Assembly (NCBI RefSeq): GCF_024521635.1
Contig: NW_026250419.1
Span: 496,001-560,000, forward strand
Source of the DNA: Tricharina praecox
Taxonomy: Eukaryota
Length of the DNA stretch: 64,000 nt
Direction of reading: 5' to 3'
The translations under genes were made by a program, and so were the position numbers. Each line of letters starts with the position of its first letter. Position 1 is the stretch's first letter. Shown here one piece after another: positions 5,076-55,828 of the stretch. Below the pieces are notes generated by a model. The model saw only the letters and a program-made list of their open reading frames with translations, made no database searches and had not been told where the DNA came from.

Positions 5076-5912
5076 TGATCTCCGCGCTGACTATGCAGGC
5101 GTTGATGGACTCGCCCTCGGAGCCAGTGCTATGGTTTGAGTTTGGCATACTTACCCTGCTTGCTGGAAGGGGCTCCGGACTTCCGAACCTCGGGCCAACT
5201 TCCTGCTGGGACGGGGAAACCGTATTAGGTGTGTGTAAATGTTATTGGATCCGAAGAGTTTGGAGTTCATCGCCATGGTGACGTTGCGGAGTGGCCAGTA
5301 GGTTGCCATTCGGGTTATCGAAGGCACTGGCGATCGTGGGCGTCCAGTTGGGGCCTGGGCCAAAGGCTGGCTGGCTTCTGAACGGACTTTGCCGTATGTA
5401 CTATACGGACTGTTCCATACCTTTTACCGGAGGGACTTAGAAGTTAGGCTTCACACGTATTCCATCCCATTGGAAAGGCATTCTCGGACGACTCCGATGG
5501 GCTCTTGGAGCACTGGAGCTGTGCTTTACGCACCACGAATGACATCTCGGGGGCCTAATCTCACCCTTCCCCACCTCTCTACCTAGTTCCAAGTGGCTTT
5601 TTTTGTTCATTCATTTATTGCATGTTCGTTCCAAGCGGCTGGCTATCAGCCTTTTTTTTTACCACCGAGTGCGAGTGACGCCGTGTGATTTCTACTACCG
5701 AGTGATCAATACGCACCGACACCTCCCGCTGCTCTAATAGGTATACCTATGCTGTCGATGGTTTCACGAGAGGATAATCGACCGCTGCCAAGTCCTTATC
5801 TCCATTCATGCTCAAGCGATTTTCCGGCACTGGGCAGGGCATCCCGCCAAAAGGCCTGCTGCGGGTGATTACTACGCATACTACTATTACTACCCTGCTA
5901 CCCTGCACCCCC

Positions 5913-6220
5913 TACTATTCTACTATCCTACTATCCTACTATCCTACTATCCTACTGTCCTACTATCCTACTATCCTACTATCCTACTGTCCTACTATCC
6001 TACTATCCTACTATCCTACTATCCTACTATCCTACTATCCTACTATTCTACTATCCTACTATTCTACTATCCTACTATCCTACTATCCTACTATTCTACT
6101 GTTCTACTATTCTACTATTCTACTAGGTATGCTGTCATCCTACTATTCTACCACCATCCTACCGTCCTGATTCAACCACCCCACTAGCCCGTTATCCTAT
6201 TATCCTACTATCCTACTATT
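5913..6220. repeat. (TACTATCC)n octamer microsatellite with TACTATTC/TACTGTCC variants
   Basis: Directly visible tandem octamers; they account for spurious ORF 5808..6170. Confidence 0.95.
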
Positions 6221-8237
6221 CGCCGACCACTATACCGTAGGCAGACTAGGGAGGCTGTGCAACGACTGGGCAAATAATTGATCCCGCCCCCCGCGGTCGT
6301 GGTTGCCGGGACGGACTGACGAACACTTTCTTGGCATATTCGTATTCCTCGGCGGCGGCGAGAGTCGGGCACGATTGGATGCTACAGTGCTACATAGACT
6401 TGGAATTGAGGCGCAGGGCTCTGCAGTCGATCTCGGGTATGTAACTAGAGAACGCGGGCGCGCGGCAGGTTACTACGACGACACCGGGGCGTCGAGTTTG
6501 TCGTAGGTACATACCGTATCCCACGAGTAACTGGTTCCGCAGTAGGTACTCAGTACCAGTTAGTAAGCATGCCGAACAAGGAATGCCAGCCGCGTGGTAC
6601 GTACCGTGCGGCTGAGACTCGAGACTCGAAGACGGCAGCGAGGCCGCGAGGGTGATTACAGTGAGGGTGCCTGCATGGGGCGAGGCTGGATTGCATACCT
6701 ACTCCACATACCAGGTACCTATTAGCAACCAAGTAGCCACCAACCTACGTATCTGCGCGCATAGCCTCGTTCGGGAGCAGCACGCAAGTCCGGTGTTCCG
6801 GAAGTGCGGCGTGTTCGCTTCTGCTTTGCTTCTGCAGACTCACGAGCAATAACCAAGTAGGTAGATAGACAAGTTGCGGTCCGGATATGTAGAGTGTGTG
6901 TTGGGCTACCTACTTGTCTAGGTACTATAGCTATAGATACCGGTACATATGCTTCTTCTCCCACCGACCTACCTCCCTTGAAGAAGTGAAGAAGTGGGAG
7001 CCTCACTCACTCACTCAGGAGTCAGCCAGCGCCTGCGCCCGCGCCCGCGGCCCACAATGATCCCAGGACGCTCCGTTCGCTAAATTTTGCTACTTTTTGG
7101 CCTCGCTTGAGGTGGTGCATGGTCAACTGGTGCTCTATCTACTATATAACCAACTATACCCTGCATGGTGATAGATGACCACCGTTGTGGGCTGGGCAGT
7201 GGGCAGTGCGGAGTCAGTCGCGGACTGCGGAAAACGCTCCTTGCATGCCACGCCGTTCTTCACCGTCGACGTTGACGTTGCCGTGGTCGTTGTCGTCGTC
7301 GTGGCGGACATTGTAGTCATGAGGTGCTAGTTAGCAGAGGCCTTGCAGAATCCCGATATTCACTCGCCCATCCACCAACCCCTCACTCTAGCCCGATCCG
7401 TTTTGCATGCGCAGCGGACTTTTGGGGAAGTTGGGAGAAAGTTGGGAACTCAGAGTCAGCGTCAGCGAATCGAATGCAACTCGGGCGCTACTATTTTTGG
7501 GATCAAATAGTAGGACTAGGGGCTTTTGGCGAGCGTCACACAAGACGCTGGGTAAGGGCCAACAATAATATAACATGTGCAGTCACAACACTGCACTGCG
7601 GTGTGGAATTTCCCGCGGTTTGCTTTGCTCGTGCGCGCGCCGTGGAGGAGACTGAAGAGGAGAGACGGTTCGAAACAGAACTGGCGTTTCGGAAAGGAGA
7701 AAGGGCACAAAGCTGAAGGGAGACGGAGCAAAAGCAAAACTCCCAACAGGCCGGCTAGCTAGGGCGAGTCAACCAGCCGGTGCGACTCTCGATCTCGAGA
7801 AAGTCTCAGGAACACCGCCAGCTTGAGTGGACTCAAACAGTCCGCAATCTTTCTTTTGGACATGCGCAGCGCTGAAAAAAACCCTTGATATGTATGAGAT
7901 CACACATGCCTACGCTGCCTGCGTATGCCCCTCTCCCCCCCCTCCCCCCTCCCATGGTCGGCGGAGCAGTACATAAGGCGGAGCCCACACTCTTTGTGCG
8001 CAACTATTCCTTCTCCTCCTCTCGTCAGCTCATCCACCACACACCCACGCTTCCTGCAAATAGTCGAACTCCAAGTGGCCTGCCGCTGCTTTTCTTACAG
8101 AGGTGAATGCGCGACCCGTCGTCGTCGTCGTTGGTGATAAAAAGCCGGACTCGAGAGCTGACTCGAACTGCACAGCAGACCCCACACACACTCACCTTGT
8201 ATCACCTGACCCCTCGCGATCCGCGATACCTTCAAAA

Positions 8238-34498: not shown

Positions 34499-37400
34499 AT
34501 GGGGATGCCGAATTTGAACACCGTCTTTGTGGTGCTGCTGCTACTCTTCGCAGCCCTCACATGGGCGCAAAACGAGACGTCGACGCCGGCGGAAGAAGAG
34601 GCGCAGGGAGGGTTCGCAGGCGATGACTTCAGCAATAAGTATGTGGGCAGACGGCGAACGCGCAATCGAAGCCCCGAGTTGGAGGTCGCAAGGCTGACGG
34701 TATAAAACAAAAGCCTTTTCAGCGATATCGCACCGCTCCTGGCGCTTTTCGGAGAACGATTCACGGTCTCGTTTATGTCCGAGAGCCAGGGATGGCTCGA
34801 CCATATCGTGTTCGCCAGTAAGATCGTCCTTCCAAACTTTTAGCCCAGTGGGGTCTGAGATGTGACAAGTGGTGCCGTTGGGAATCATCACGGCGGTGGT
34901 GGGAGCGCTGCGGATCGGCGGTCCTGCTTGGCTTCGCGCTATCATCGGACGTGCCCGCGAGAATAGGGCTTCGGCAGAAGTCGAGTTGATGTCTTCAACG
35001 TCTGCAGAGTGAGTTCTTGTGTTGATACCTATGTGGGAACTTCATCCGGAAAGCTTACCGACAACGAATGGTAGGGTTTGCGAGCTCTGGAATGGTATGG
35101 CGATTGTCAGAACGCTGGGAAAACCCGAGATCAAGGAGATTGTTTACCTGGAAAAACTCGATGACGGGGAATCGACCTTTGGGCTCTATTCGACGCCCGT
35201 GGCGGATAAGGAAGGAATCCTGAAATGTGAAGGTGAGTTATTGATCGAATACCTTCGGCTATTTTGGCAATTTTGTTTACCGGTTCTTTTAGCTGTCGAT
35301 GACCCTCTCGTAATGTGGTGTAAAGCTTTACTTAGTGGTGTACTAGCCGTAATTTGCGGCGTCCGTGGTACGTATAGGCGATCCTGATCCATAACTTATG
35401 CTTTATCCTAACGTATTGGAAAGATTTATTCCTGTTCCCGGCCCACAGTCTTCGGCATACCAAGCCTGTACGAGACGTGGAAAACGGCGGCGTATTTCCA
35501 CCTAACAGCGGTGCAATTCCGTCCGCGGGCGTCTCGAAGGAACCTACCGTTGACACACAGCCAATCGCGAAGAGTAATGTGGTCAAGAATCGCCAGCAGC
35601 CGGGCGAGGAGTCAGCACCCAACATATCTCTGAACGTTCACGCTCACGGCGGTAGTAAGGTCCTTGACCTTGTTTTTGTTGCAGTTGTGGGTATCGTGAT
35701 GCAATTTGGTTTCTTGGTCTTTGTCGGAGCTGGCGTTTATCATCCAACCTGGAAAAACAACTTTCTGAAAGAGGGGCAGCCGGTAGCATCATACGCATAC
35801 CCACTCCTGGCAATTGGGACGATTTTCATTGTGCTGGGCATGATGATTTGCAGCGCTATCGTTGAGCGGAGCACCGAGGAAAAGCGGTGGGTGGCTGGTT
35901 CGAAGTACCTCGACGACGTGCCTCCAACGTTGGGCAGACGCTCAACTTGGGCAAGTATAAAAGGGAGAACCCCGGGTTCCAATAGTGCCCGCGCACCTGA
36001 GCTTGGGGCCCGAGTCCTCTGGTTGCAAAAAAATCACACAGTCGGTGACCAGCTTTTCGATTCGTTCGTGATGTTTGCTCAGGGGAAGCGGGAATCTGTT
36101 TTGATGTCCCACAGACGTGGAATGGAGGGGAGTGAAACAGATGTGAACGCCCGCAGGTCTAGATCAAAGAAAGGACGGAGGGCCTTATGGAAGACGCTTG
36201 CCTCTAGTTTCGAGGAAGGCTTCACCTTGCTTGGAACGTTTCTATCTCTTGCTGGTTTTGTGCTTCAGTTTACAGGTGCAGCGATCCCACAGGCCCCCGG
36301 GGTTTATCTTGACTAAATTTAATGTAGGTCTACGCGCGCTTAATTGGACGGCATCAATTGCACAGCTCGTGGCAATTGCTATCATGACGAGTTTGAGAGC
36401 CTGGTTGCGTCGAGGAATGATCACACCGCCGGTAACTGCCAGAGTTCGTAGTGCGGGACACGAAATGGATTGGCTTGCTTTGGAAATCGCATCTGAGCCA
36501 AATTTCTGGAACAAATACAGCGATAGAGATGATGCGTACCTAGAAGATGCAGACTCGAGTGATCCTGGAGACGCACTAGAGACGGAACCCTCGGAAATCA
36601 TGGCAAAAAGATTCTCAATATGCACCGGCACTAGCAACTTCGCCTCACGAGGACTTTGGTCGCATGGGCCGACTCTGCCAACATCTGCGGGCCAGCATGC
36701 AATGAGGGTTCGACAACGGTTGGGTAGTCTCACAAAGTGGGTTGGTCTAGCATCCAAGCCGGCAGTTGCAGTTGCCGAGGCGATTGAGAGTGTGATGAAT
36801 GAATTCTTTGATCAGCCATCCGAAATGGGGGAGCCGCCAAGGCTTATTTGGTCTCTAAAGGTCAAAACCAGCTTCACCGAAGAGGATGAATGGATCAATT
36901 TCACCGTGAAGTACGATGGTCATGATCAGAAGTGGATTGCCGATGCGACAGAGATAGAAGCGGCCCTGTCCCTTTGGATCTATGATATTCAAGAAATCGA
37001 GCGCCTCAAAGCTGAAGATGAAGGTATAGAGAAGACCGGTGATTGGTTGCGGGAGGGAAATACAGCGGTACGCCGAAAGTCAACACGAGTATTGGGCATC
37101 AAGGATGGGCCCCTTGAAACCGATCTGCGTTGGTGGTTGCAAGACACCATCCATCCAAGAGGCACTTATGCCGAAGCGGATTTAGAGGTGCCTCCGAGTA
37201 CATTGGACCCGCTTGAGTACTACCAAGTCCCGGAGGATGACGGTCGGATTTGTGTCGGGTTTACAGGTCTCCATCAAAATGGACGGACAGGTGAGCCCAG
37301 ATTTTCGACTCGTGGGGGTGAATATAACTTACTTGGTGTCATCTAGATCAATCTGATTCTTCCCAAACGCTTGCCGTCACCTCGGAGGCCCCATTAGAGA

Positions 37401-40171
37401 AACTCCTTGCCCAACACTTGTTTTCCGGTTTCATGTGGGCGATTGCCGATTCTGTGCCTGACTCCAAATTGAGGGATCTCCAAACAACAGTGGATGTCGT
37501 CAACCTATCCGAGGAGGATCCAATGTCGTCGGCAAGCTTTAGGAACGACGATCTTTCCAGACTTCTGGATAGCATCGATAATCACACCCTTGGGACTGTG
37601 CTGGATTTGTTGATGTGCATTGTTCCTCCTCTCAGCCATGCCAGAAAGCTCCCAGACGAGGCATTGGTCTCTTTCGTACGAAAGAAAACATACCATCTTG
37701 AAGTTCTTGGTCAATGGGATAAAGTTATTCCACTTTATGTTTCCCTTCTGGACATCTGTGTTAGATTCGGCGAAGATAGCACCATTTGTCAGAAGGCAAC
37801 CCTTGCCGCGGTAGAGGTATATAGAAATATCAGCAGTACATGCCGCCTTTGGGAGAGACAATACCGGGAAGGAATGGCGGTAGATGGACTCAGAAACCAG
37901 CGGGACACGTTACAACAAAGATTGAAGGTAGTGGATGGCACCCTAATGTTCGCTTTCGCCCGATTCTTTTCCTCTAAGCAGGGTCCACCAGCAAAATTCG
38001 ACGAACTTAAGCCACAGCACTGGAAGATCGACAAAACGAAGATTGACCCCCGCGAAATCCACGAATTCTTCGGGTACTCACCATTCTTCAAGGACTTGCG
38101 CTCCGTTTCGGTTGGCCATGTTGAGGAGTTTGTAAAGCAAATACGGCCCAACTTGGACCAAAGAGACATATATGGAAGGTCGTTCCTTCATTACGCCGTG
38201 ATCCAGGGGACGGAGCAAATGGTCAGAGGGGTCATATCTGCCGGCCTGACGCCACAAGTGGAAGACATTGCTGGTTTTACGCCTCTGCACTACGCCGCAT
38301 TGGAGGGTTCTGGAACGTCCACCTCCATACTGCTTGAGTACGTAGCCGATGTCGACCACAGAGCCCGAGATGGAACTTCACCGCTTCATTTGGCCGCAAA
38401 CGAGAAAGTGGCTACACAACTCATTCAGAGAGGAGCCAATGTCGAACTCCAAGACAACATGCGAAGAGTTCCCTTACACTATGCCGCCTTCATGGGCCGT
38501 GAGAAAGTGGTTAAGCTTCTGATTGAGAATCGCGCGTTTCTGAACGTGCGTGACGATTACGGCAGGACGGCCCTCCATCTGGCGATGATTTCGGGTAACG
38601 AGGGGACCATGATGGCTTTGCTCCGCAGCGTCTCTGTCACAGAAGCTTTGGATATTGTCGACCGCGACGGAAGAAACTTCTTGCATCTCGTGGCCATTCA
38701 AGGCCTTGGAAAAAAGGCTCTATGGCTAGGGGAGCAACTCAAATCTGGCTTAGGTTCCCCCAAGCAGCCAGGGTTACTTTCGGCCCAATCCGTCCAGCCA
38801 AAAACATCCCCCGACCATCCAAGCTCGTCTCCCGACAATTCGGAACAACTGAAGTCCGCCATAAGCACGAGGGACCGCGATGGAAGAACACCGCTACACT
38901 TAGCCGTACTGAAGGGCCACAAGGAGCTGGTAAAGATGTTCTTGGAGTGGGGTGCTGATCCGAACGCGAAAGACAGCTCGCAAGGCACTGCAATCCATTT
39001 TGCTGCCCACTATGATCGCCATGAAATGATCGGGCTGCTGGTTGACAAAGGTGGTAAGATTGAAGAGCGGTACAAAGGCACTGCTCTAGGCAAGGACCAC
39101 CATGTAAAGGAGAGAGCAACTATCAACGACAGCAGCCGTGAGGCTACAGCCACGCAGATGCTGTCAGACCACACATACGGCGAGGAAGAGGAAGGATCGA
39201 CCCCGCTTCTCATCGCCGCTGCGAGAGGCAACACCGGTACCATGCGAGCCCTTTTGAAACATCACGCAAATCTCTCGGCGTCGGATGACAAATGGTCAGC
39301 ATTGGCCTTTGCATGTTCTTTCGGTCATGTGGAAGCAGTGAAGTTCTTGCTGGAGCAGGGAATCGAAGTCGACAGTCGCGATCTCATGCGCGATACACCA
39401 CTCCATAACGCCGCGAGCGGGGGTCATGATTCGGTGATACGACTGCTACTGGAGAAGGGCGCAGAAATCCAGGCAGGAAACAATGGTTTGGAAACTCCGC
39501 TGCATATGGCCTGTCTACACGCGAAGGAAGTATCAACAGTTCGGATATTACTGGAGCACGGTGCCGACCCAAACGCACATTCCTTGGGAACTCAGTGCAC
39601 CACACCTCTCCACATTGCTGCCCAAAACGATAGCACCGAGATCGTACGGCTCCTGTTGGAAAAAGGCGCCGATCCTAACGCGAAGACGGAAATGATTGGA
39701 TGGGATGCTCTGAGGCTAGCACAATCGGTCGAGGTTTGCGAAATCCTAATAGTAGCCGGTGCCGACGTGAAGGCTATCTCGAACAGTGGCTTTACTCAGC
39801 TGGCTCAATCCGCCGGCAACCTCGGAAAAACAAAGCTTCTAGCGGACCATGGCGTTGACTTCACGCGTACCGGGGGCCCCGGCAATAAAGGCCCCATCAG
39901 CTGGGCGGTTGCCGCGAACGACTTCTACATGGCTCGGCTCGCGATCGAGGCAGGCGATGACATCAATCGAAAAGACACCGAGACCGGGGGCACGCCTCTT
40001 CATGCTGCTGTCCAACGAAAGTTGTTTGGTATGATCAAGTTTTTGATCAAGAATGGGGCCGATAAGAACGTGAAGAATGACAACGGCGAAACGCCTTGGG
40101 ACTTGATCCGCACCGCCGTTTTTCTGGGCAAGCATGGCTGGTCTGATGATATCATCCGACTATTGCGGTAG
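34499..40171 (+). CDS. Large multi-exon protein: signal peptide + N-terminal multi-TM region + long C-terminal ankyrin-repeat array
   Basis: N-terminal DDFSNNLFSDIAPLLALFGE...IVFAMVPLGIITAVVGALRIGGPAWLRAIIGRARE...AEVELMSSTS..VCELWNG is typical of a fungal TM-ankyrin family. About 15 ankyrin repeats (GRTPLHLA, TPLHNAA, TPLHIAA) lie in 38160-40110. Checked junctions (e.g. 35233-35423) keep frame. Confidence 0.82.
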
Positions 40172-40500
40172 AAGGTTTTTGGTATGTCTTCCTCATGATC
40201 GCTTTATAGGTTGTGATGCGGCCAAGACTCTTACGAAAAACCAGGTGGTAGGAGCTTTGCAGGGCGAGGTTTCATGGGGGGTTTTTGGTTCGTGAACGTG
40301 AGGGTGTATACGGTAATGGGGTGTATACGGGACTATGTACGCAATATCTGGGACTTAAGCGTTTGGTTAATTTGGATAGGGAAGATGGCGTGGATACAGA
40401 TACAGGTTGATTGATGGTAACTGTCTATGGTTCAAGTGCTTGTATATACGAAATATGTACATACAAAATGACGCAAACAAAAACAACCATCATAAGAAGC

Positions 40501-40887
40501 CTAAGTACCGCTTCCGTACCACTCCTCCAACTTCTTCCAAAGCTTCGGCACCTCGACTATCCCAGCTAGCGAGGAAATACACTGGCGCAGCTGCGATTCC
40601 AGCCCGGACATGATGATGCGTCTCGCCAGCGCGCGGCGGTACGACAACTCGCGGTCGCGGTCGCGGGCGGCGATGATAGTACCAGTAGAGTCTCGCGGCA
40701 CTGACTCGGGCCCGAACACGACGTCGTAGACGCCGTAGTGCAGCAGCAAGCCACTCATATTGGTTACCCAGGTCTGGTAATTGCTGCCGTCGCTGAGGAG
40801 CTGGAATTCTGGGGCCATGTATGCGAAGTTGTTCGGGAGGAGGGATCGGGAGGGGGTCAGCGGCGTGATAGCGGGGGGTCTCGTCAT
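40501..40887 (-). CDS. 128-aa Ty1/copia Gag N-terminal-like protein, copy 1
   Basis: LLSDGSNYQTWVTNMSGLLLHYGVYDVVFG...LARRIIMSGL...PKLWKKLEEWY fits the copia Gag N-terminal pattern (L.G.NY..W...M...L...G....V.G ... A...I...L ... LW..L...Y). Confidence 0.7.
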   Translation of the reverse strand: MTRPPAITPLTPSRSLLPNNFAYMAPEFQLLSDGSNYQTWVTNMSGLLLHYGVYDVVFGPESVPRDSTGTIIAARDRDRELSYRRALARRIIMSGLESQLRQCISSLAGIVEVPKLWKKLEEWYGSGT

Positions 40888-41282
40888 GGTGCTGTGGTCA
40901 GAAGGGTATTTGCTTGTGTATGTGTATGTGTATGTGTATGTGTAGTTTTTCACTCGTCTGGGTGTGGATCGCTTGGTAGATACTTGGGTGGGGAGAGGAG
41001 GGGTGATGGAGAGAAGGTCGCTATATGTTAGCGGTTTGCGAGGATTCAAGTGATGTAGTGACGACGTGGATTGAATCTGAATCTGAATCGAACGGGACCT
41101 CTGCCTCTCCCTTTGCCTCTGCCTCTGCGGCGAACATGGAATGGATGGAGATTTGGAACGTTTGGTTGCTTTTGACGGGGAATATGGCGAGGGTATAGAT
41201 ACAGGTTGATTGACGGCAACTATCTATGGTTCAAGTGCTTGTATATAAATGACGCAAAAAAACAACAACCATCACAAGAAGC

Positions 41283-41660
41283 CTAAGTACCGTCTCCAAA
41301 CCACTCTTCCAACTTCCCCCAAAGCTTCGGCACCTCGACTATCCCAGCCAGCGAGGAAATACACCGACGCAGTTGCAGTTCCAGCCCGGACATGATTATG
41401 CGTCTCGCCAGCGCGCGGCGGTACGACAGCTCGCGGTCGCCAGTACTAGTAGTATCTCTCGGCGCCGACTCGGACCCGGACCCGAAAACAACGTCGTAGA
41501 CGCCGTAGTGCAGCAGCAACGCGCGTATATCGATTTCCCACATGCGGTAGTTGCTGCCGTCGCTGAGGAGCTGCATTTCTGGGGCCGTGAGGGCGAAGTT
41601 GTCCGGGAGCAGGGAGCGGGAGGGGAGCGGCGGCGGCGTGATAGCGCGGTATTTCGTCAT
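41283..41660 (-). CDS. 125-aa Ty1/copia Gag N-terminal-like protein, copy 2
   Basis: Paralog of 40501-40887 (LLSDGSNYRMWEIDIRALLLHYGVYDVVFG...PKLWGKLEEWFGDGT) with the same start and stop positions. Confidence 0.7.
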   Translation of the reverse strand: MTKYRAITPPPLPSRSLLPDNFALTAPEMQLLSDGSNYRMWEIDIRALLLHYGVYDVVFGSGSESAPRDTTSTGDRELSYRRALARRIIMSGLELQLRRCISSLAGIVEVPKLWGKLEEWFGDGT

Positions 41661-43756
41661 GGTGCTGTGGTCAGTTGGGTACTTGCTTGTGTATGTGTAT
41701 GTGTAGTTTGTCACTCGTCTGGGTGTGGGTCTGTTGGTAAATACTTGGGTGGGGGTGAAAGGGTGAAGGGAGAAGGTCGCTATATTATGAGGGTTTCCGA
41801 GGATTCAAGTGAAGCAGCGACGGCGAGGATTGAATCTAAATCGAACGGCTCTGGACCGAACGGGATCTCTGCCTGTGCCTCTGCGGCGAACATGGAATGG
41901 ATGGATGGATGCCGGTCAAATTGAATGAGCATCGATATCGAGTTGGCCACGCATGTGGACTACCACGACATCTGGAAGTATTTTTGCCCATATGTGCACG
42001 AGTCGGAGAAGATGCCGATCGTCTTTGTACATACGGTGCGGCACCGTAAACTGGACCCGCCCGTGATGGAGCACCGTATATACGGCATGCCGTCGAGAGC
42101 TACGTGATTTGCCTAGACGTCATGCCTGATTCCCTGCCGTGAGTCGTGACACTGCATGCAACGTTGTTTGACATGTGTTTCTCAAAAGGCTACACATGCG
42201 CAGGTCCGAACCTTAATTCCGCCATGCCACGCCGTCATGCCACGCCGCCATGCCGCAAAGTTACATACAGACCAAGTCCGAGCACGTGACATGGTCTTGC
42301 CAAGCCTCACAACAAACCTCCATCACGTGCCCTTAGCCGCCGCTGGAGCCACACACCACGCCACACCCGACAATCGTAGCAATGAGTTGACATGTACCGG
42401 GGCCATGGCCAGGGACCTGATAATGATCAGCGGAACTCCTACATCGGATTCAAAGAGTTGTAGGGGCTAAAAGTAAGGTTTGAGGTAGTGGTGGGAGGGC
42501 TGTTTGGAAGGAGAGAGGAGCAAAAACATTGTTCGAAATTGGACATCTGGGTGGAATGTGTAACTTCTGTCACTATTGCAACTAGCATGATGGAATATAG
42601 CCTTTAATAGCATGCAAAGAGAAATTCCATCTACCAAGAATCCCAGTCCGTGGTGTGGTTAGTGGGAACGGAGGGGCAAAGAGTGACCGTTTATGAGGCC
42701 ATTTTGGCACTCAGCGGTGCTATATGATCGAAGGGATACATGTTATGTATCCCCTGTGTCGTGCTTTTTAGAGAATGCTGGGCGGCTATATGGAATCGTA
42801 CTGCGCATCGAGAAACAAGCGCTCCTGCTGAAACACAGGCTCGGAATTAACCATTTGCATTTCCGTGATCTCTCGTGGGGAGCTCGGGGAAAGAGTGGGG
42901 AGGATGCATAGAATCTCCTTCCACTCTATATCCGTTCGCAAAGATTACGAAGACTGCCCGGTTACTATCTCAGGTACAAGCCGGTAGGTATCTCAGATCC
43001 AGACCATCGGGCTACAAAGACGGCGGTCGAAAGGTGGAGATCGGGTGCTCCCCACTTCTGAGACAGGGATGGGACGACTTTCGGCCCCGCAGTTCACAAT
43101 TCGCAATCGGATGGTTTCCTCGGAAGATTTAGCTTGCGCTCCAAGCAGAATAAGTATAGTAGTACTGTTCCGGTAAACTACTAATGATATATCTATACCC
43201 AGGCGACGAACGCCTCCAGGGAGCAGTAGTCGGTGGTTTATTTGGTAGGCTGCAGCATCTCTCCACCGGCAAACATCCTTTTTATTATAGCAGAGCGCAT
43301 TGCATCTCTACATCTCCCCCCCTCACCAAATAGCAACTCACTCTAATTTGTGCCACCAAATAAACTACCGGCTACTGCTCCCTGGAGGAGTTCGTCGCCT
43401 GGGTATATATCATTGGTAGTTTACCGGAACAGTACTACGGTGCTACATAGGTGGAGGGCATCCTGTCTGTATGTACCATCACTCTCTTGCATGACCCCTT
43501 ACGCCTCGATTACGCGACAGCTGCACATCTGACCTATTGATATGATCTACATACACAGGTCGCAAGAAATTACTGATTTCATAAACTAAAAAAATGCACA
43601 TCGGACTGAAGCTTGTCGAAAATCATGCTTTAAAATCGTCAATCGCATCTTGATGAACACCCAAATGGTATCCTCGTCGTAAACAACCCTCCAGTTTCCC
43701 CATGAGATCATGGTTCCATACTAATCAGATCATCTCATGCAGAACTGCAGAAGTCG

Positions 43757-44174
43757 CTACTCTAGTTTTTCCGCCGCCTTTCCGTTCTCCCTGGTCGCAT
43801 CCCAGCGCTTGAACTCGTGTTGAATGCTTCCTTCAACCAACGTCGCATAGACCTCTCCCGCCAATTCCTCGGGGAAGTCCACCTTGTTGGCCGTGGCCTT
43901 GACCTTGGAGATGACGTCGTCGACGCGCCACTGATCGCGAACCACATCGCGCGACGGCTTGATGCGCGCAGCCGCCTCAATGTACCGCATACGCTGGCCT
44001 AGAGATGCGCGGCGCGGTTAGCTCCCGACGGACAGTAGCAGGGGGTGCAAGAAGGGTCGACCAACCTAGAAGCGTGACGATCTGGCGGTCCAGGTCGTCG
44101 ATGGCGGTGCGGACGTGCGCCATGGACGTCGCGTTCTCGGCGGAGGGGTAGGAAGCTCCGGTGCTTGAGGACAT
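43757..44174 (-). CDS. Small bacterial-type chorismate mutase / isochorismate-pyruvate lyase (AroQ/PchB, CM_2 fold); intron 43999-44065
   Basis: The spliced product SMAHVRTAIDDLDRQIVTLLGQRMRYIEAAARIKPSRDVVRDQWRVDDVI has the AroQ R..ID..D..I..LL..R......A..K.....V.D..R pattern. The intron has GT...GCTAAC...TAG and joins in frame. An alternative start is 44228. Confidence 0.85.
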
Positions 44175-45786
44175 CTTGATCGCGGGAATGTCGGTGGAGG
44201 GAATGATGGTGTTGGTGCTGGGGCTCATGGTGCGGGAGTCGTTGAAGGATGTGGGTAGGAGTTCTGATGGAATTCAGGTGTGGAGGATGCTCTATCAAGC
44301 GTGGAGTGGAGGGTCAAGAGGGAGCTTTTATCGTGCAGGAGGCATCAAACGTCGAGACTCGGGACGGCAAGTTGTGCGCTCCCCACAAACGCAAAGTTTA
44401 GACAAGCGGACCCCTGCAGATGGCGCCTAACCGCATGAAGCGTGAAGTATGCTAGCTGCACAAGCGGATTGTTGGATAATCCGGATGCATTCGTTCGTAC
44501 ATGAAGAATGCATTTTGCGTCTTTCATATGGTGAGTCTTCCGTGTCCCTGCGGCCCGGTTTCGGGCCTCACGAGAAGTCGGGACGTTAGGCGAAGCCAGT
44601 CTGATTTTGACCCGGCGCTAGTCGGAGCTGTTCCAACCCCACCGCTAGATATCACAAGCGCTGCTCGGGACGACAAGTACGGTACATGTGAGGCATGCAC
44701 CCATCACAACGCCGGAAGCGAGACTGTTAGACGTCGTGTGCGATCGTCGATGACACACTGCGGTGTCACTATTAAAACGGTGTAACTTCCCTTTGTCTCC
44801 GACTCTCGAGTCTCCGCTCGTCTCCGCTTGTACATCCCGAAGCCAACAGGTAAACCTTATCTCCTTCCTTCATTCCGACACAACCCCGCTTTGTAGCTTC
44901 CCCGAAGCTCTCCTGGCTTGCACCTGTCTATCCATTCCTCCGACTCTCTGACCATCTGTTCTCAGTAGCAGTCGAGGTATTCCTGCAGGGTGCAAAAATT
45001 CCTCGGCCGAAGACGTTCGTCGGGAATAAAACATTGACATGTGAGGCGGATTATATTTGGATCGGAGCTCTCACGATTATAGCGATCCCACCAACCGCCG
45101 TATTACTATATGAGAGAACTGGGGCTCGGAGAAGTACTTTCAAATGCGCGGCAGCGCTACGGACAGAGGTGGGTTGTATGGTCCCCCGCACAGCACGAAG
45201 AACAGTGGGAGAAGGCCCACTTTGTCCTTAACCCTATAGAAGGTGATATATGGAGGTATGTCTAGTATACTACCGGTTCTTTGATCCCCGAGTTCCCAAT
45301 GTCATAGCATTGTTTAATATTAGCCGTTTGGCTTGTGTATGGCTATTTGATCGCTTTCGACCGCTGTCGCGGTTGCTGCTGCGTGCGATCCCCGGAGCTG
45401 GAGTAGTGTGCATATCTGGTGACGGACGAGCGAACTTGTCACCGGAACCGGCTCAGGAATATAAAGGGTATTTAATGACGGATCTTGAGCCAGATGAGAC
45501 TGCAGGGTTTGTGGCTGGTATGAGTTGCGGTGGCTGAAGGGATGTACATGTTCAAAAGTCGAATCACATGATATCACCCAGTCTCCCCATTGAATCGGCA
45601 CATTTCCTGCTCATGGGTCCGGTAGAAACGCAATCAACTCGGACCTCATACTATGTATCATCATGGCCGCCTCCTGAAGTTTTAGATAAAACCCCTCACC
45701 CTCCCCGACAGGAATTACCGAACGCCAATTACCACTGCAACCCGTCGGATTGCCCATCATATATCGCTCTGCAAAGCCAACAAACA

Positions 45787-46311
45787 ATGGCAGCCGAAAA
45801 GCAAGTCATTCCCACGGGGAATCTGAACTCCGATGCCGAGAATATACCACCTCCAACTAGCGACTGCTCGCAACAACCGGACTCATACCTCGACATAATC
45901 AACAGCCTGAACGAGACCATAATTGCACAAAAGATGGCAGCCGAAAAGCAAGAAATTCCCCCAGGGGATCTAAACTCCGATACGGAGAACATACCACCTC
46001 CACCCAGCGACTGCTCCCAAGTCCAACAACCGGCCTCATACCTCGACATAATCAACAACCTGAACGAGACCATAATTGCACAAAAAGAAGTGATCAGCTC
46101 TCTACGCGCTGCTTTAAAGGACCTCGAAGCACGCCACGATAGGTATGAAGCACTGATGAAGATAAAGTATCCAGAGGTGAGCGGGGCAGTGGTCGTAATG
46201 CGGAAGTGGTGGGAGGGAAAGAAGCGGAATCAGAAATACGTCTGGGACGAGGTGGTGGAGTGGGAAATGGGTAGCGAGCCGGAATCGTCAGTCGAATATA
46301 CAGATACATAG
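45787..46311 (+). CDS. Hypothetical protein with duplicated ~49-aa N-terminal unit and coiled coil
   Basis: MAAEKQ..P.G.LNSD.ENIPPP.SDCSQ..QP.SYLDIIN.LNETIIAQK occurs twice (45787-45932 and 45933-46085). The ORF is open from 45568. Confidence 0.55.
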   Translation: MAAEKQVIPTGNLNSDAENIPPPTSDCSQQPDSYLDIINSLNETIIAQKMAAEKQEIPPGDLNSDTENIPPPPSDCSQVQQPASYLDIINNLNETIIAQKEVISSLRAALKDLEARHDRYEALMKIKYPEVSGAVVVMRKWWEGKKRNQKYVWDEVVEWEMGSEPESSVEYTDT

Positions 46312-53494: not shown

Positions 53495-55828
53495 GAGAGT
53501 ATGTACCTTTTATATACCATGGAATACGGAGGCAACCTTTTATATACCATGAATACCATGACGGGAATATAGCGACCTTTATTATGGCCGCAACAGGCGG
53601 GCGACAGGCGGTCAGAGTCTGGTGTGAAAATAATATTGGTAACTGCGAGCGGGCATGTGCGCAACATTGCACGGAGCGGAAAATCCACCACTCATGAAAT
53701 CCGTAACACAGAGCGGAAAATAAATAATACACAAATGAAACTGCTATGCATTCTTTTTTGTCCGAAGTTTGCAAGTACCCGCCTTATGCCCCGGCCTTCC
53801 ACAACTACCACAATGTTGCTGAGTTCTACCCGATGCTCTGGCCGCCGCCGCGCGTTGCCCTGCAACCGCCGCACGCGCCTGCTGTCGTTTCCCAATAATT
53901 TGACGATACTATCCAGCGGGAGCAGGTGGATGGCAGTTGTTGGCTTCTGAGGCAATCGCGCCGGGTATGATAAGGTGAGCGGCACCATGAAGGTTTGCAG
54001 TGCCATCCGCCGGGAGGGGTGGAGTAAAAAACGAATGGCCGCATGTTTTGACTACAATGGATGATTAGCAACTACTACTTCAATGGTAAGAAACCAAAAA
54101 ACAACTAACCTGTAGGTGCTATTCCAACGAGCGTAGGTAAAGGTTTCGAGTATAAAATCAACAGTATCCTTTCAGAGTTCAAGAATAAGTGCTAGAGCGT
54201 GGCTGCACGGTAGTAGATTGAGTTGAAACTGTTTGCAGGTACACGTACGGGCCGGTAAGTCTACCGCATACTGGATATGTTCGGTATCGTGAACAAATCC
54301 AGTATCCTCAGGCTCACGAGTGACAGTATGTAAACGCGCAATACGAACATCGTTGTTGATGAGTTTCTGGATACGAGGAGTGATAGTCTGTCCAGGCGCA
54401 GGATTCTGGGCAAGTTCATAGCGTTCCTGGCGTGCTCCCATCTCCTGGTGTCAAATACCATCCAACAATTCAAAGATCCCCAGCTCTCGAAGGTCTTTGA
54501 GCATGTTGAGATTTTCGACTGCGTTCGATGTTTGTTACCCGCAGCGACGATGAATTCCACCCGGAATCATTCCGTCGACCCAAAGCGTAGGATCGATCTT
54601 CGCAAGATAGTCTGCAGCAGTAGGTTTCTTCTCACGCAGTACGCTCATATCCGCATCGTAGGCAACACGGTTGATTGCCCGAGCCAAGCTCCAGAAGTTG
54701 ACTTTAAAGTCTTCATGGCCATTCTTCTCGAAGTTTCGTCGCAGATGCTCCAAGCAGAAGAGCCGTGTAGCTGTAGGACCGAGAACATCTTCCGCCGACT
54801 CGAGAAGCGCTTTATCGCGGTCGCTCATGATCGTAGCCGTGCAGACCTCCGGGATAGCAGCTTTCAGATGCGAGAAGAAATACCGCCAGGAGTCTTCGTT
54901 CTCGCTCTCGACAACGGACCATGCGAGGAGCATGGACTGTCCATTGGCATCGATACCGCTCGCAACAAGTAACGTTTGTGGATAAAACACCTTCAAACAT
55001 GTGCCGTTGATGGCCGTGAACTGCCGCGATTGTGCGAATGCGTGTCGCGACTCAGCCGGCGAAATAAAAATACGTTGGAAATCTCGTTTTCGCGGGTTTT
55101 TTGGTGTTGCCGAAGGCAGTGTTGTCAAATCGATAAAACAGTTTGGACTGTGCAGCTTGAGGGCGTGGAGATACGCCGGAAGATGAAAGAACTGAAGAGC
55201 GTGAGCGGCACTGCTGGATGCTACCAAACTGTTCCGGCACTCGAGCGCTGCATTGTAGTTGACTGTTTCTCTATGCCGAAACTTGACCGCGGCGATGATC
55301 TGTTCGGGGGTGACCTTTCTCGTGACGTGGAGAAGTTTCGACACCTCTCGTCGCAACCATTCCTGGCTGTTGACATGACTGTGTTTTGCAGTTTTTCGGG
55401 CGGGACAGGTGTGAAGCGGCTTTACCCGCCGTACCTCGACTCGGTCCTTTTGTTGCGTCGCATACACTCGGAAGGGACATGGCTTTTCGCGGTACTGGTG
55501 GCATCGGTAGTCGACTCGTGTGCGGTCTTTGGGGTGTAGCCGCGTGGAAAAGTTCTCGGCCGTGGCCCACGCCTCGACTGCTTGCTTCAAGGCAAGAAAG
55601 CATTCGAAAGATGATGATGATAATGATGGCGGAAGGACAAAAGAGTTGCCCCTTTATTTTCTCACCAGACTCTGACCGCCCGTAAGCTGTCGCCCGCCCG
55701 TAGGCTGTCGCCGCCATAATAAAGGTCTGTGGGTCAAACTGTATCCCTGTCATGGACTCATGGTATTCATGGTATATAAAAGGTTGCCCTGTATTCCATG
55801 GTATATAAAAGGTACTATATGTACTCTC
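53495..55828 (-). mobile_element. Mutator-like (MULE/MuDR) DNA transposon, 2334 bp, with long TIRs and 9-bp TSD
   Basis: The left end GAGAGTA..GTACCTTTTATATACCATGGAATAC...GGTCAGAGTCTGGTG (53495-53633) is inverted at 55653-55828. Flanks are ACAGATATG (53486-53494) and ATAGATATG (55829-55837). Confidence 0.93.
54110..55590 (-). pseudogene. Decayed MULE transposase (MuDR DNA-binding domain, DDE core, SWIM finger)
   Basis: Motifs CPFRVYA..HTC, FQRIFI, AINGT (normally DGT), IMSDRDKAL, CLEHLRRN, TSNAVE and CTCKQFQLNLLPCSHALA all lie in one frame. In-frame stops at 54535-54537, 54451-54453 and 54172-54174. Confidence 0.88.

Follow-up and report, generated by a model that had tools for sequence, protein, structure and literature searches.

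Several described genes keep only part of a retroelement capsid (CA). In mammalian half-capsid genes it is the N-lobe alone that is kept (PMC11011659). RTL8, a 113-aa protein with three paralogues, consists of a CA N-terminal domain (NTD) only and is less than 30% identical to PEG10; it enters particles of PEG10, binds to the NTD of that protein and reduces their yield, and the isolated PEG10 NTD mimics it (PMC11684626). The fragments p22/p18m and Drt2 represent the CA C-terminal domain (CTD) and pair with near-identical Gag via the CTD dimer surface; Drt2 is a host-fixed single locus in Saccharomyces cerevisiae and poisons particle assembly (PMC13709905). Here we describe a tandem pair of short open reading frames (ORFs), ORF A and ORF B, in a 64,000-nucleotide stretch of Tricharina praecox DNA (hereafter the window; contig NW_026250419.1, positions 496,001 to 560,000, assembly GCF_024521635.1). 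They probably arose by recent duplication within an old gene family, kept by its cup-fungus hosts and derived from Ty1/copia gag.

A survey of 2,011 genomes by Wang and Han, in which only events above family level were counted, describes three co-option events in fungi; those derived from copia, Crtg12 and Crtg13, are single-copy genes of Dothideomycetes (Pleosporales, Mytilinidiales) with 217 and 293 aligned sites (PMC8321522). In plants, fusions of a copia NTD to ankyrin repeats, with or without a PGG domain, form a large family (PMC12062965). We found no description of a fungal gene made of a copia NTD only in the literature searched, which consisted mainly of open-access papers.

Both frames are predicted to encode a single copia CA NTD

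A preliminary description of the locus reported a duplicated ~0.78-kb unit with one ORF per copy (128 and 125 aa) and a common start and stop. Alignment bears this out. The two head-to-tail copies (Table 1) are ~0.79 kb long and 79% identical over 802 gapped columns, and the starts and stops of ORFs A and B are aligned, with three coding indels of 3, 6 and 18 nt between them.

The same description proposed an origin from the N terminus of a Ty1/copia Gag, which profile, cluster and structure comparisons support. In Pfam, ORF B matches DUF4219 (E value 0.0038) and ORF A matches positions 1-75 of the 172 in Retrotran_gag_2 (E value 0.23), both below cut-off at 17.4 and 11.3 bits against a curated threshold of 27. 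The Atlas clusters nearest to ORF B are DUF4219/Retrotran_gag clusters, at 0.90-0.92. Models built on a seven-sequence alignment have five helices each, with a predicted local distance difference test score (pLDDT) of 75 for ORF B, where all five models exceed 70, and of 69 for ORF A, where two of five exceed 65.

When these models were compared with 48,161 chains, the retroelement capsids that had been suggested as a check came out on top: the first 17 rows for ORF B and the first 15 for ORF A are all retroelement capsids. The best match of both is the Drosophila Copia capsid (8VVW) over residues 3-91, with 89 residues aligned (ORF B, Z score 11.6, root-mean-square deviation 2.2; ORF A, Z score 11.0, root-mean-square deviation 2.9), although Z scores below 13 may reflect an arrangement common in helical bundles. 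In the same comparison Drt2 reached 4.5 (B) and 4.1 (A). Sequence identity to the Copia NTD is 17-20%, and Foldseek put the same 8VVW chain first, but with an E value of only 0.071. In Copia, the NTD spans residues 1-90, and the NTDs make up the spokes in the middle of the capsomer, with the CTDs at the rim (PMC11835246); each ORF would therefore amount to a short leader followed by exactly one CA NTD. Fold, Pfam and Atlas lines agree, and together they support the prediction that ORFs A and B carry the Ty1/copia CA-NTD fold, cut at the NTD/CTD border. Relative to the Copia capsid itself (8VVW, 8S41; DUF4219 plus the first half of Retrotran_gag_2), they share the fold over residues 3-91, lack the CTD, nucleocapsid, pol and long terminal repeats (LTRs), and have an extra N-terminal motif.

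Comparison with described capsid-derived genes

The closest likeness is to RTL8A/B/C and LDOC1, which share with ORFs A and B a length of ~110-130 aa, a CA NTD only, the lack of pol and of a zinc knuckle, paralogues that are near-identical or in tandem, a truncation common to relatives and a low identity to any full capsid. However, RTL8 is mammalian, descends from Ty3/gypsy (Metaviridae) and targets PEG10, whereas ORFs A and B are fungal, descend from Ty1/copia and are known from sequence alone. The likeness to RTL8 is an analogy, with no family-level homology.

ORFs A and B are, like p22/p18 and Drt2, Ty1/copia-family Gag fragments in a fungus, and p22 was the precedent first invoked for them. 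The anatomy is wrong for this: p22 and Drt2 are described as CTD fragments (PMC13709905), whereas ORFs A and B correspond to the NTD, and p22/Drt2 is therefore not the model for them. Crtg12 and Crtg13 are likewise stand-alone, copia gag-derived genes of ascomycetes; ORFs A and B differ in being ~125 aa long, tandem and in another host class, a distinction drawn from descriptions only. The plant DUF4219-ankyrin(-PGG) proteins resemble them in that a host protein has retained nothing of copia but NTD-sized units, but in those the units are repeated and fused to ankyrin or membrane domains, are 18-24% identical to ORFs A and B and sit on another branch. Two plant-like proteins met in our searches, P0009 and P0013, have three copia-NTD-sized repeats, in one case fused to ankyrin and PGG domains.

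The pair is confined to one locus

Searches covered the 38.4-Mb, 104-contig assembly, in which the window lies on contig C14. At both DNA and protein level the unit and its ORFs occur in two copies only, both at this locus, as their presumed stand-alone, non-dispersed status had implied. In searches of the genome with two relatives described below (P0005 and P0004), ORFs A and B ranked first by at least nine orders of magnitude.

The reported lack of a zinc knuckle, pol or LTR nearby was also upheld. The nine window proteins scanned gave no match to a zinc-knuckle family or to copia pol, the contig of the pair bears none of the RVT_2 or rve matches obtained across the genome, and no LTR-like direct repeat other than the tandem unit itself was found in 30001-52000. 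The 1.25 kb upstream of the pair is single-copy, save for one 141-bp, 76% match elsewhere in the genome. A copia origin and two similar copies might suggest that the unit forms the coding part of a non-autonomous element derived from copia, mobile now or recently. The restriction to two adjacent copies, the lack of an LTR or terminal repeat, the almost wholly single-copy upstream sequence and the failure to find a close full-length parent in a search of 1.84 billion representatives, or in a weak search of longer proteins, make this very improbable.

A truncation point common to diverged relatives

A profile built from ORF A, ORF B and P0003 gave 12 matches among the 1.84 billion representatives: five small relatives (P0003, P0004, P0005, P0007 and P0012), two copia Gag or polyprotein sequences, two plant-like NTD-repeat proteins and three bacterial proteins. 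A full copia polyprotein was reached at an E value of 1e-5. The bacterial matches (P0006, P0008 and P0010) are surface proteins with repeats, and we set them aside as chance profile matches. The five small relatives are 32-68% identical to ORF A or B. One of them comes from Sphaerosporella brunnea (Pyronemataceae), and on its strength we infer that the family belongs to the Pezizomycetes. That species is in the genome list of Wang and Han, yet the available text of the survey reports no such gene (PMC8321522).

All four relatives that have an N terminus share a leader motif of proline-arginine/LLP type, which is absent from the Gag rows aligned. From the LW motif of the last helix to the end of the protein there are 11 residues in ORFs A and B and 10-15 in four of the five relatives; P0007, the Sphaerosporella member, runs on into a 100-residue non-Gag tail. 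The strongest indication that the host has retained the family is this single truncation point, which persists through 60% divergence. Longer relatives (386-2000 aa) did not appear among 8000 scored candidates, in a search that was weak.

Phylogeny with the genome's own copia Gags, another of the checks suggested for this locus, gave a divided answer. In a tree of 28 NTDs (seven from the family, 16 from uninterrupted Gag frames of the same genome and five database rows), ORFs A and B and the five relatives occupy one side of a branch with support of 93/93. Identity to the 16 own-genome NTDs is 14-26%. A sister relation to one of them, L010, was rejected in the approximately unbiased (AU) test (p-AU 0.009), but the grouping with another, L005, was not. 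Copy B has evolved faster, with a branch length of 0.15 against 0.031 for copy A.

Selection and divergence between the copies

The claim that these are domesticated genes under selection draws its support mainly from the equally truncated, diverged relatives, and the pairwise evidence for selection is weaker. The proposed comparison of nonsynonymous and synonymous rates (dN/dS) between copies gave 0.60 for the whole ORF by the Nei-Gojobori method (0.53-0.64 depending on transition weight), with a bootstrap interval of 0.32-1.08 that includes 1. By segment, the ratio was 0.36 for residues 75-125, 1.06 for residues 1-27 and 0.72 for helix 1. The C-terminal half, which had been called nearly identical, is well conserved only, with ~7.5 non-synonymous differences in 51 codons. 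In neutral simulations, both frames survived 53 substitutions with p = 0.10, and with p = 0.004-0.03 when indels were included; 27 residue differences were observed against 35 expected in simulation (28-40; p = 0.009), a count that clustering of the changes lowers. The GC content at third codon positions (GC3), 0.79 for ORF A and 0.76 for ORF B, lies in the range of six of the nine window host genes tested (0.72-0.79) and above 19 of 20 (A) and 18 of 20 (B) of the genome's own Gag frames (0.52-0.78). CpG depletion and repeat-induced point mutation indices did not separate relics from host genes in this genome. Constraint on the two ORFs would thus appear moderate and relaxed.

Contigs from a second strain cover 41399-41743 and 40617-40875 and list no stop or frameshift in ORF A or B. 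The three changes listed in ORF B are one silent substitution and two residue replacements, one of them to the residue found in ORF A.

Divergence does cluster in one helix, as had been noticed. Eight of nine residues of the helix-1 segment differ, and in a scan permutation the cluster was significant with windows of 9 residues (p = 0.0013) and 10 residues (p = 0.005) but not of 15 (p = 0.16); for DNA, p was 0.007-0.02. The segment is also loose among outgroups, with a pairwise identity of 0.35, while the two best-conserved helices reach 0.59 and 0.54. Having considered positive selection, we do not accept it for helix 1, given the dN/dS of the segment and its looseness in outgroups; moreover, a single clustered event or conversion could yield the 12 changes in 27 nt.

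Several observations weigh against retention by the host. The dN/dS interval reaches 1.08, and divergence is no lower in the ORFs (53 of 369 sites, 14.4%) than in the flanks (14.3% and 11.4%). All three coding indels do keep the frame, but this is weaker evidence than was claimed, because four of the six flank indels are multiples of three as well (12, 9, 12 and 18 nt, against 2 and 1). Just two of five ORF A models are confident. A tree joining ORFs A and B and P0003 with the genome's own L005 stays unrejected (p-AU 0.063), the clade is partly circular because similarity to the query decided its membership, and the ends of the relatives are gene calls, some of which may be artefacts. Finally, the missing pol near the pair is unremarkable, because 21 of 23 Gag matches in the genome also have no RVT_2 match within 10 kb.

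These points bear on a reading in which the unit is a Gag relic, once kept or never kept, now drifting after a duplication by unequal crossing-over, its short GC-rich frames open by chance. Coding divergence equal to flank divergence, a dN/dS interval that takes in 1, flank indels mostly in threes and the many pol-less Gag relics of the genome would all suit it. It sits poorly with the low neutral survival of both frames once indels are counted, the deficit of residue changes, the same truncation point in relatives just 32-44% identical, the host-like GC3 and the frames free of listed stops in the second strain, and we regard drift as unlikely.

Copia elements as possible targets, compared with gypsy

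The counts that follow are lower bounds. The genome has at least 23 Retrotran_gag_2 matches, seven with stops, and at least 14 RVT_2 matches, also seven with stops and none in a frame longer than 358 aa. A Gag match has an RVT_2 match within 10 kb in only two of the 23 cases. Two relics linking gag to pol were inspected and proved to be broken into short frames. Integrase matches number at least 112, many in frames of 1,000-1,442 aa (including 1,273, 1,384 and 1,442 aa); two long-frame loci of the 112 were checked, and both are Ty3/gypsy chromoviruses. Repeats have been assembled, and gypsy appears alive and copia dead in this genome. Dead copia fits a defence that worked or has lost its job; it fits a protein with another job equally.

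Several Gag-like frames stand apart from such relics. On contig C17, an intact stand-alone frame (L045:4218-5348, GC3 0.78) joins a copia CA NTD directly to Pol_BBD (protease-like); it sits between host genes, near an ankyrin gene, and is a second candidate for domestication. Contig C28 has an intact frame of 549 aa with an NTD-like start and a long repeat tail (L046:3896-5542), and contigs C1 and C35 have intact stand-alone frames of 363 and 358 aa amid host genes (L044:4251-5339 and L049:4187-5260). Two decayed copia reverse transcriptase regions lie in inverted orientation on contig C44 (L047:3534-8253) and are 66% identical over 939 bp.

On contig C26, next to a peptidase M28 gene, is an intact full-capsid copia Gag-like frame of 401 aa from its Met (L043:3830-5176), with a Ser/Ala-rich insert, no zinc knuckle match and no pol family match in the frames scanned. 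That it might be the partner of ORFs A and B, in the manner of PEG10 and RTL8, is speculation.

A possible role in capsid assembly

If the ORFs are kept genes, what might they do? The reading we tentatively put first, while holding it somewhat short of probable, is that they act as capsid inhibitors that poison capsomers through NTD-NTD contacts. We favour this route because RTL8, a CA NTD only, lowers PEG10 yield, whereas p22 and Drt2 are CTD fragments. The ~125-aa protein would enter a growing copia capsomer at its central NTD ring; lacking both CTD and nucleocapsid, it would be unable to form CTD-CTD links or to bind RNA, and particle assembly would be stalled or spoiled. The target could be copia elements or a domesticated full-capsid gene, and duplication together with the change in helix 1 may broaden the target range. 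The available part of a copia structure preprint (10.1101/2024.02.21.581285) gave no helix-level detail of the NTD interface.

Two further points weigh against this inhibitor reading. No intact copia element that could serve as target was found among the RVT_2 matches of the genome and the two long-frame integrase loci. Identity to the own-genome Gag NTDs is low, while restriction of Ty1 needs near-identical surfaces, and no near-identical cognate element was found among the 16 own-genome NTD frames.

Next in our ranking, and rather unlikely, comes a domesticated gene whose CA NTD is now a small self-associating or partner-binding module with a cellular or non-self-recognition role and no part in transposon control, comparable to the Arc lobes, LDOC1 or the plant ankyrin-PGG proteins. 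All of the family evidence, the truncated relatives and the shared clade, applies to such a module too. The N-terminal motif missing from the aligned Gag rows, the lack of an intact copia target, the non-Gag tail of the Sphaerosporella member, the size of the plant NTD-ankyrin family (PMC12062965; P0009) and the overlap of the pair with the 3' end of an ankyrin gene also speak for it. However, its partner and pathway are hypothetical, and tandem copies with clustered change would suit conflict genes at least as well. The nearby ankyrin gene may be a coincidence, because ankyrin genes are common and another lies beside the C17 Gag-like frame. Drift comes third in this ranking and the non-autonomous element last.

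Were capsomer poisoning correct, ORFs A and B would be a fungal counterpart of RTL8 and a mirror image of yeast p22/Drt2, and genes of this kind could help explain dead copia beside intact gypsy in one genome. Known Gag-derived inhibitors of Ty1/copia are CTD fragments that need a near-identical target, and known N-terminal half-capsid genes are mammalian and gypsy-derived; an NTD-only copia family in cup fungi would be a third pairing of element type and capsid half. It would also offer a small soluble protein for asking whether an isolated NTD poisons capsomers across subfamilies. The broader idea, that filamentous ascomycetes have repeatedly captured the copia CA NTD as small, tandemly duplicating, fast-diverging and broad dominant-negative inhibitors of capsid assembly, is doubtful. 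If the role is another, the pair would still represent an undescribed co-option, unreported by the 2,011-genome survey.

Candidate gene signals and the neighbourhood of the pair

The two copies have in common a TATA-like word, a CT-rich tract, a branch-point, an acceptor, CACC and TA-rich 3' words (Table 1). By their likeness to consensus, we take these to be putative promoter and splice signals. Two matches to a splice-plus-Kozak pattern are present in the window and both fall in the pair; this is no test, as the pattern was defined with these sequences in view.

Table 1. Positions of the tandem pair, its candidate signals and other features in the window
Feature	Position	Strand	Remarks
Unit copy A	40360..41149	-	Contains 3' flank, ORF A and upstream region
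Unit copy B	41159..41905	-	Repeat of copy A
ORF A (P0001)	40501..40887	-	128 aa; predicted copia CA NTD only; GC3 0.79
ORF B (P0002)	41283..41660	-	125 aa; predicted copia CA NTD only; GC3 0.76
Helix-1 segment, 8/9 residues differ	41520..41546 (B residues 39-47); A ~40750-40776	-	ORF comparison
Candidate 5' untranslated region (UTR) intron, copy A	40892..40983	-	92 nt; GTATCT ... CTGAC-CACAG, then CACC-ATG; predicted from sequence
Candidate 5'-UTR intron, copy B	41665..41744	-	80 nt; GTATTT ... CTGAC-CACAG, then CACC-ATG; predicted from sequence
TATA-like ATATAG plus CT-rich tract, putative promoter	Copy A 41021..41026; copy B 41780-41785	-	Kept in both copies
Ankyrin-repeat gene 3' UTR	40172..40512	+	Convergent; intron 40182-40244; antisense overlap with copy A 3' flank and last ORF A codons
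Large ankyrin-repeat gene	35477-40512	+	Hydrophobic segments; spliced contigs 5.6 kb
Small type II chorismate mutase gene	43757-44180	-	Bacterial-like family; intron backed by contigs
Miniature inverted-repeat transposable element-like sequence	43159-43438		280 bp; inverted arms ~88 bp; single-copy in genome
Orphan ORF	45568-46311	+	247 aa; internal duplication of ~50 aa; coiled-coil end
Nested inverted repeats flanking Mutator-like element transposase frame	53503-55815		Frame of 371 aa, 54535-55653 (-)
Array of 8-bp tandem repeats	5871-6225		~25-35 units

The pair is flanked by a large gene with ankyrin repeats (37418-40171, +) and by a gene for type II chorismate mutase (from 43757, -). Among the runs listed as holding this sequence, none is recorded as RNA. 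Two runs were guessed to be RNA, and their contigs span the adjacent genes and show the introns of these but leave ORFs A and B uncovered save for the last bases of ORF A; such contigs show presence and not absence, and the lack of cover weighs neither for nor against expression. In spliced contigs of these runs, which come from two studies, the ankyrin transcript extends to 40512 and to 40476.

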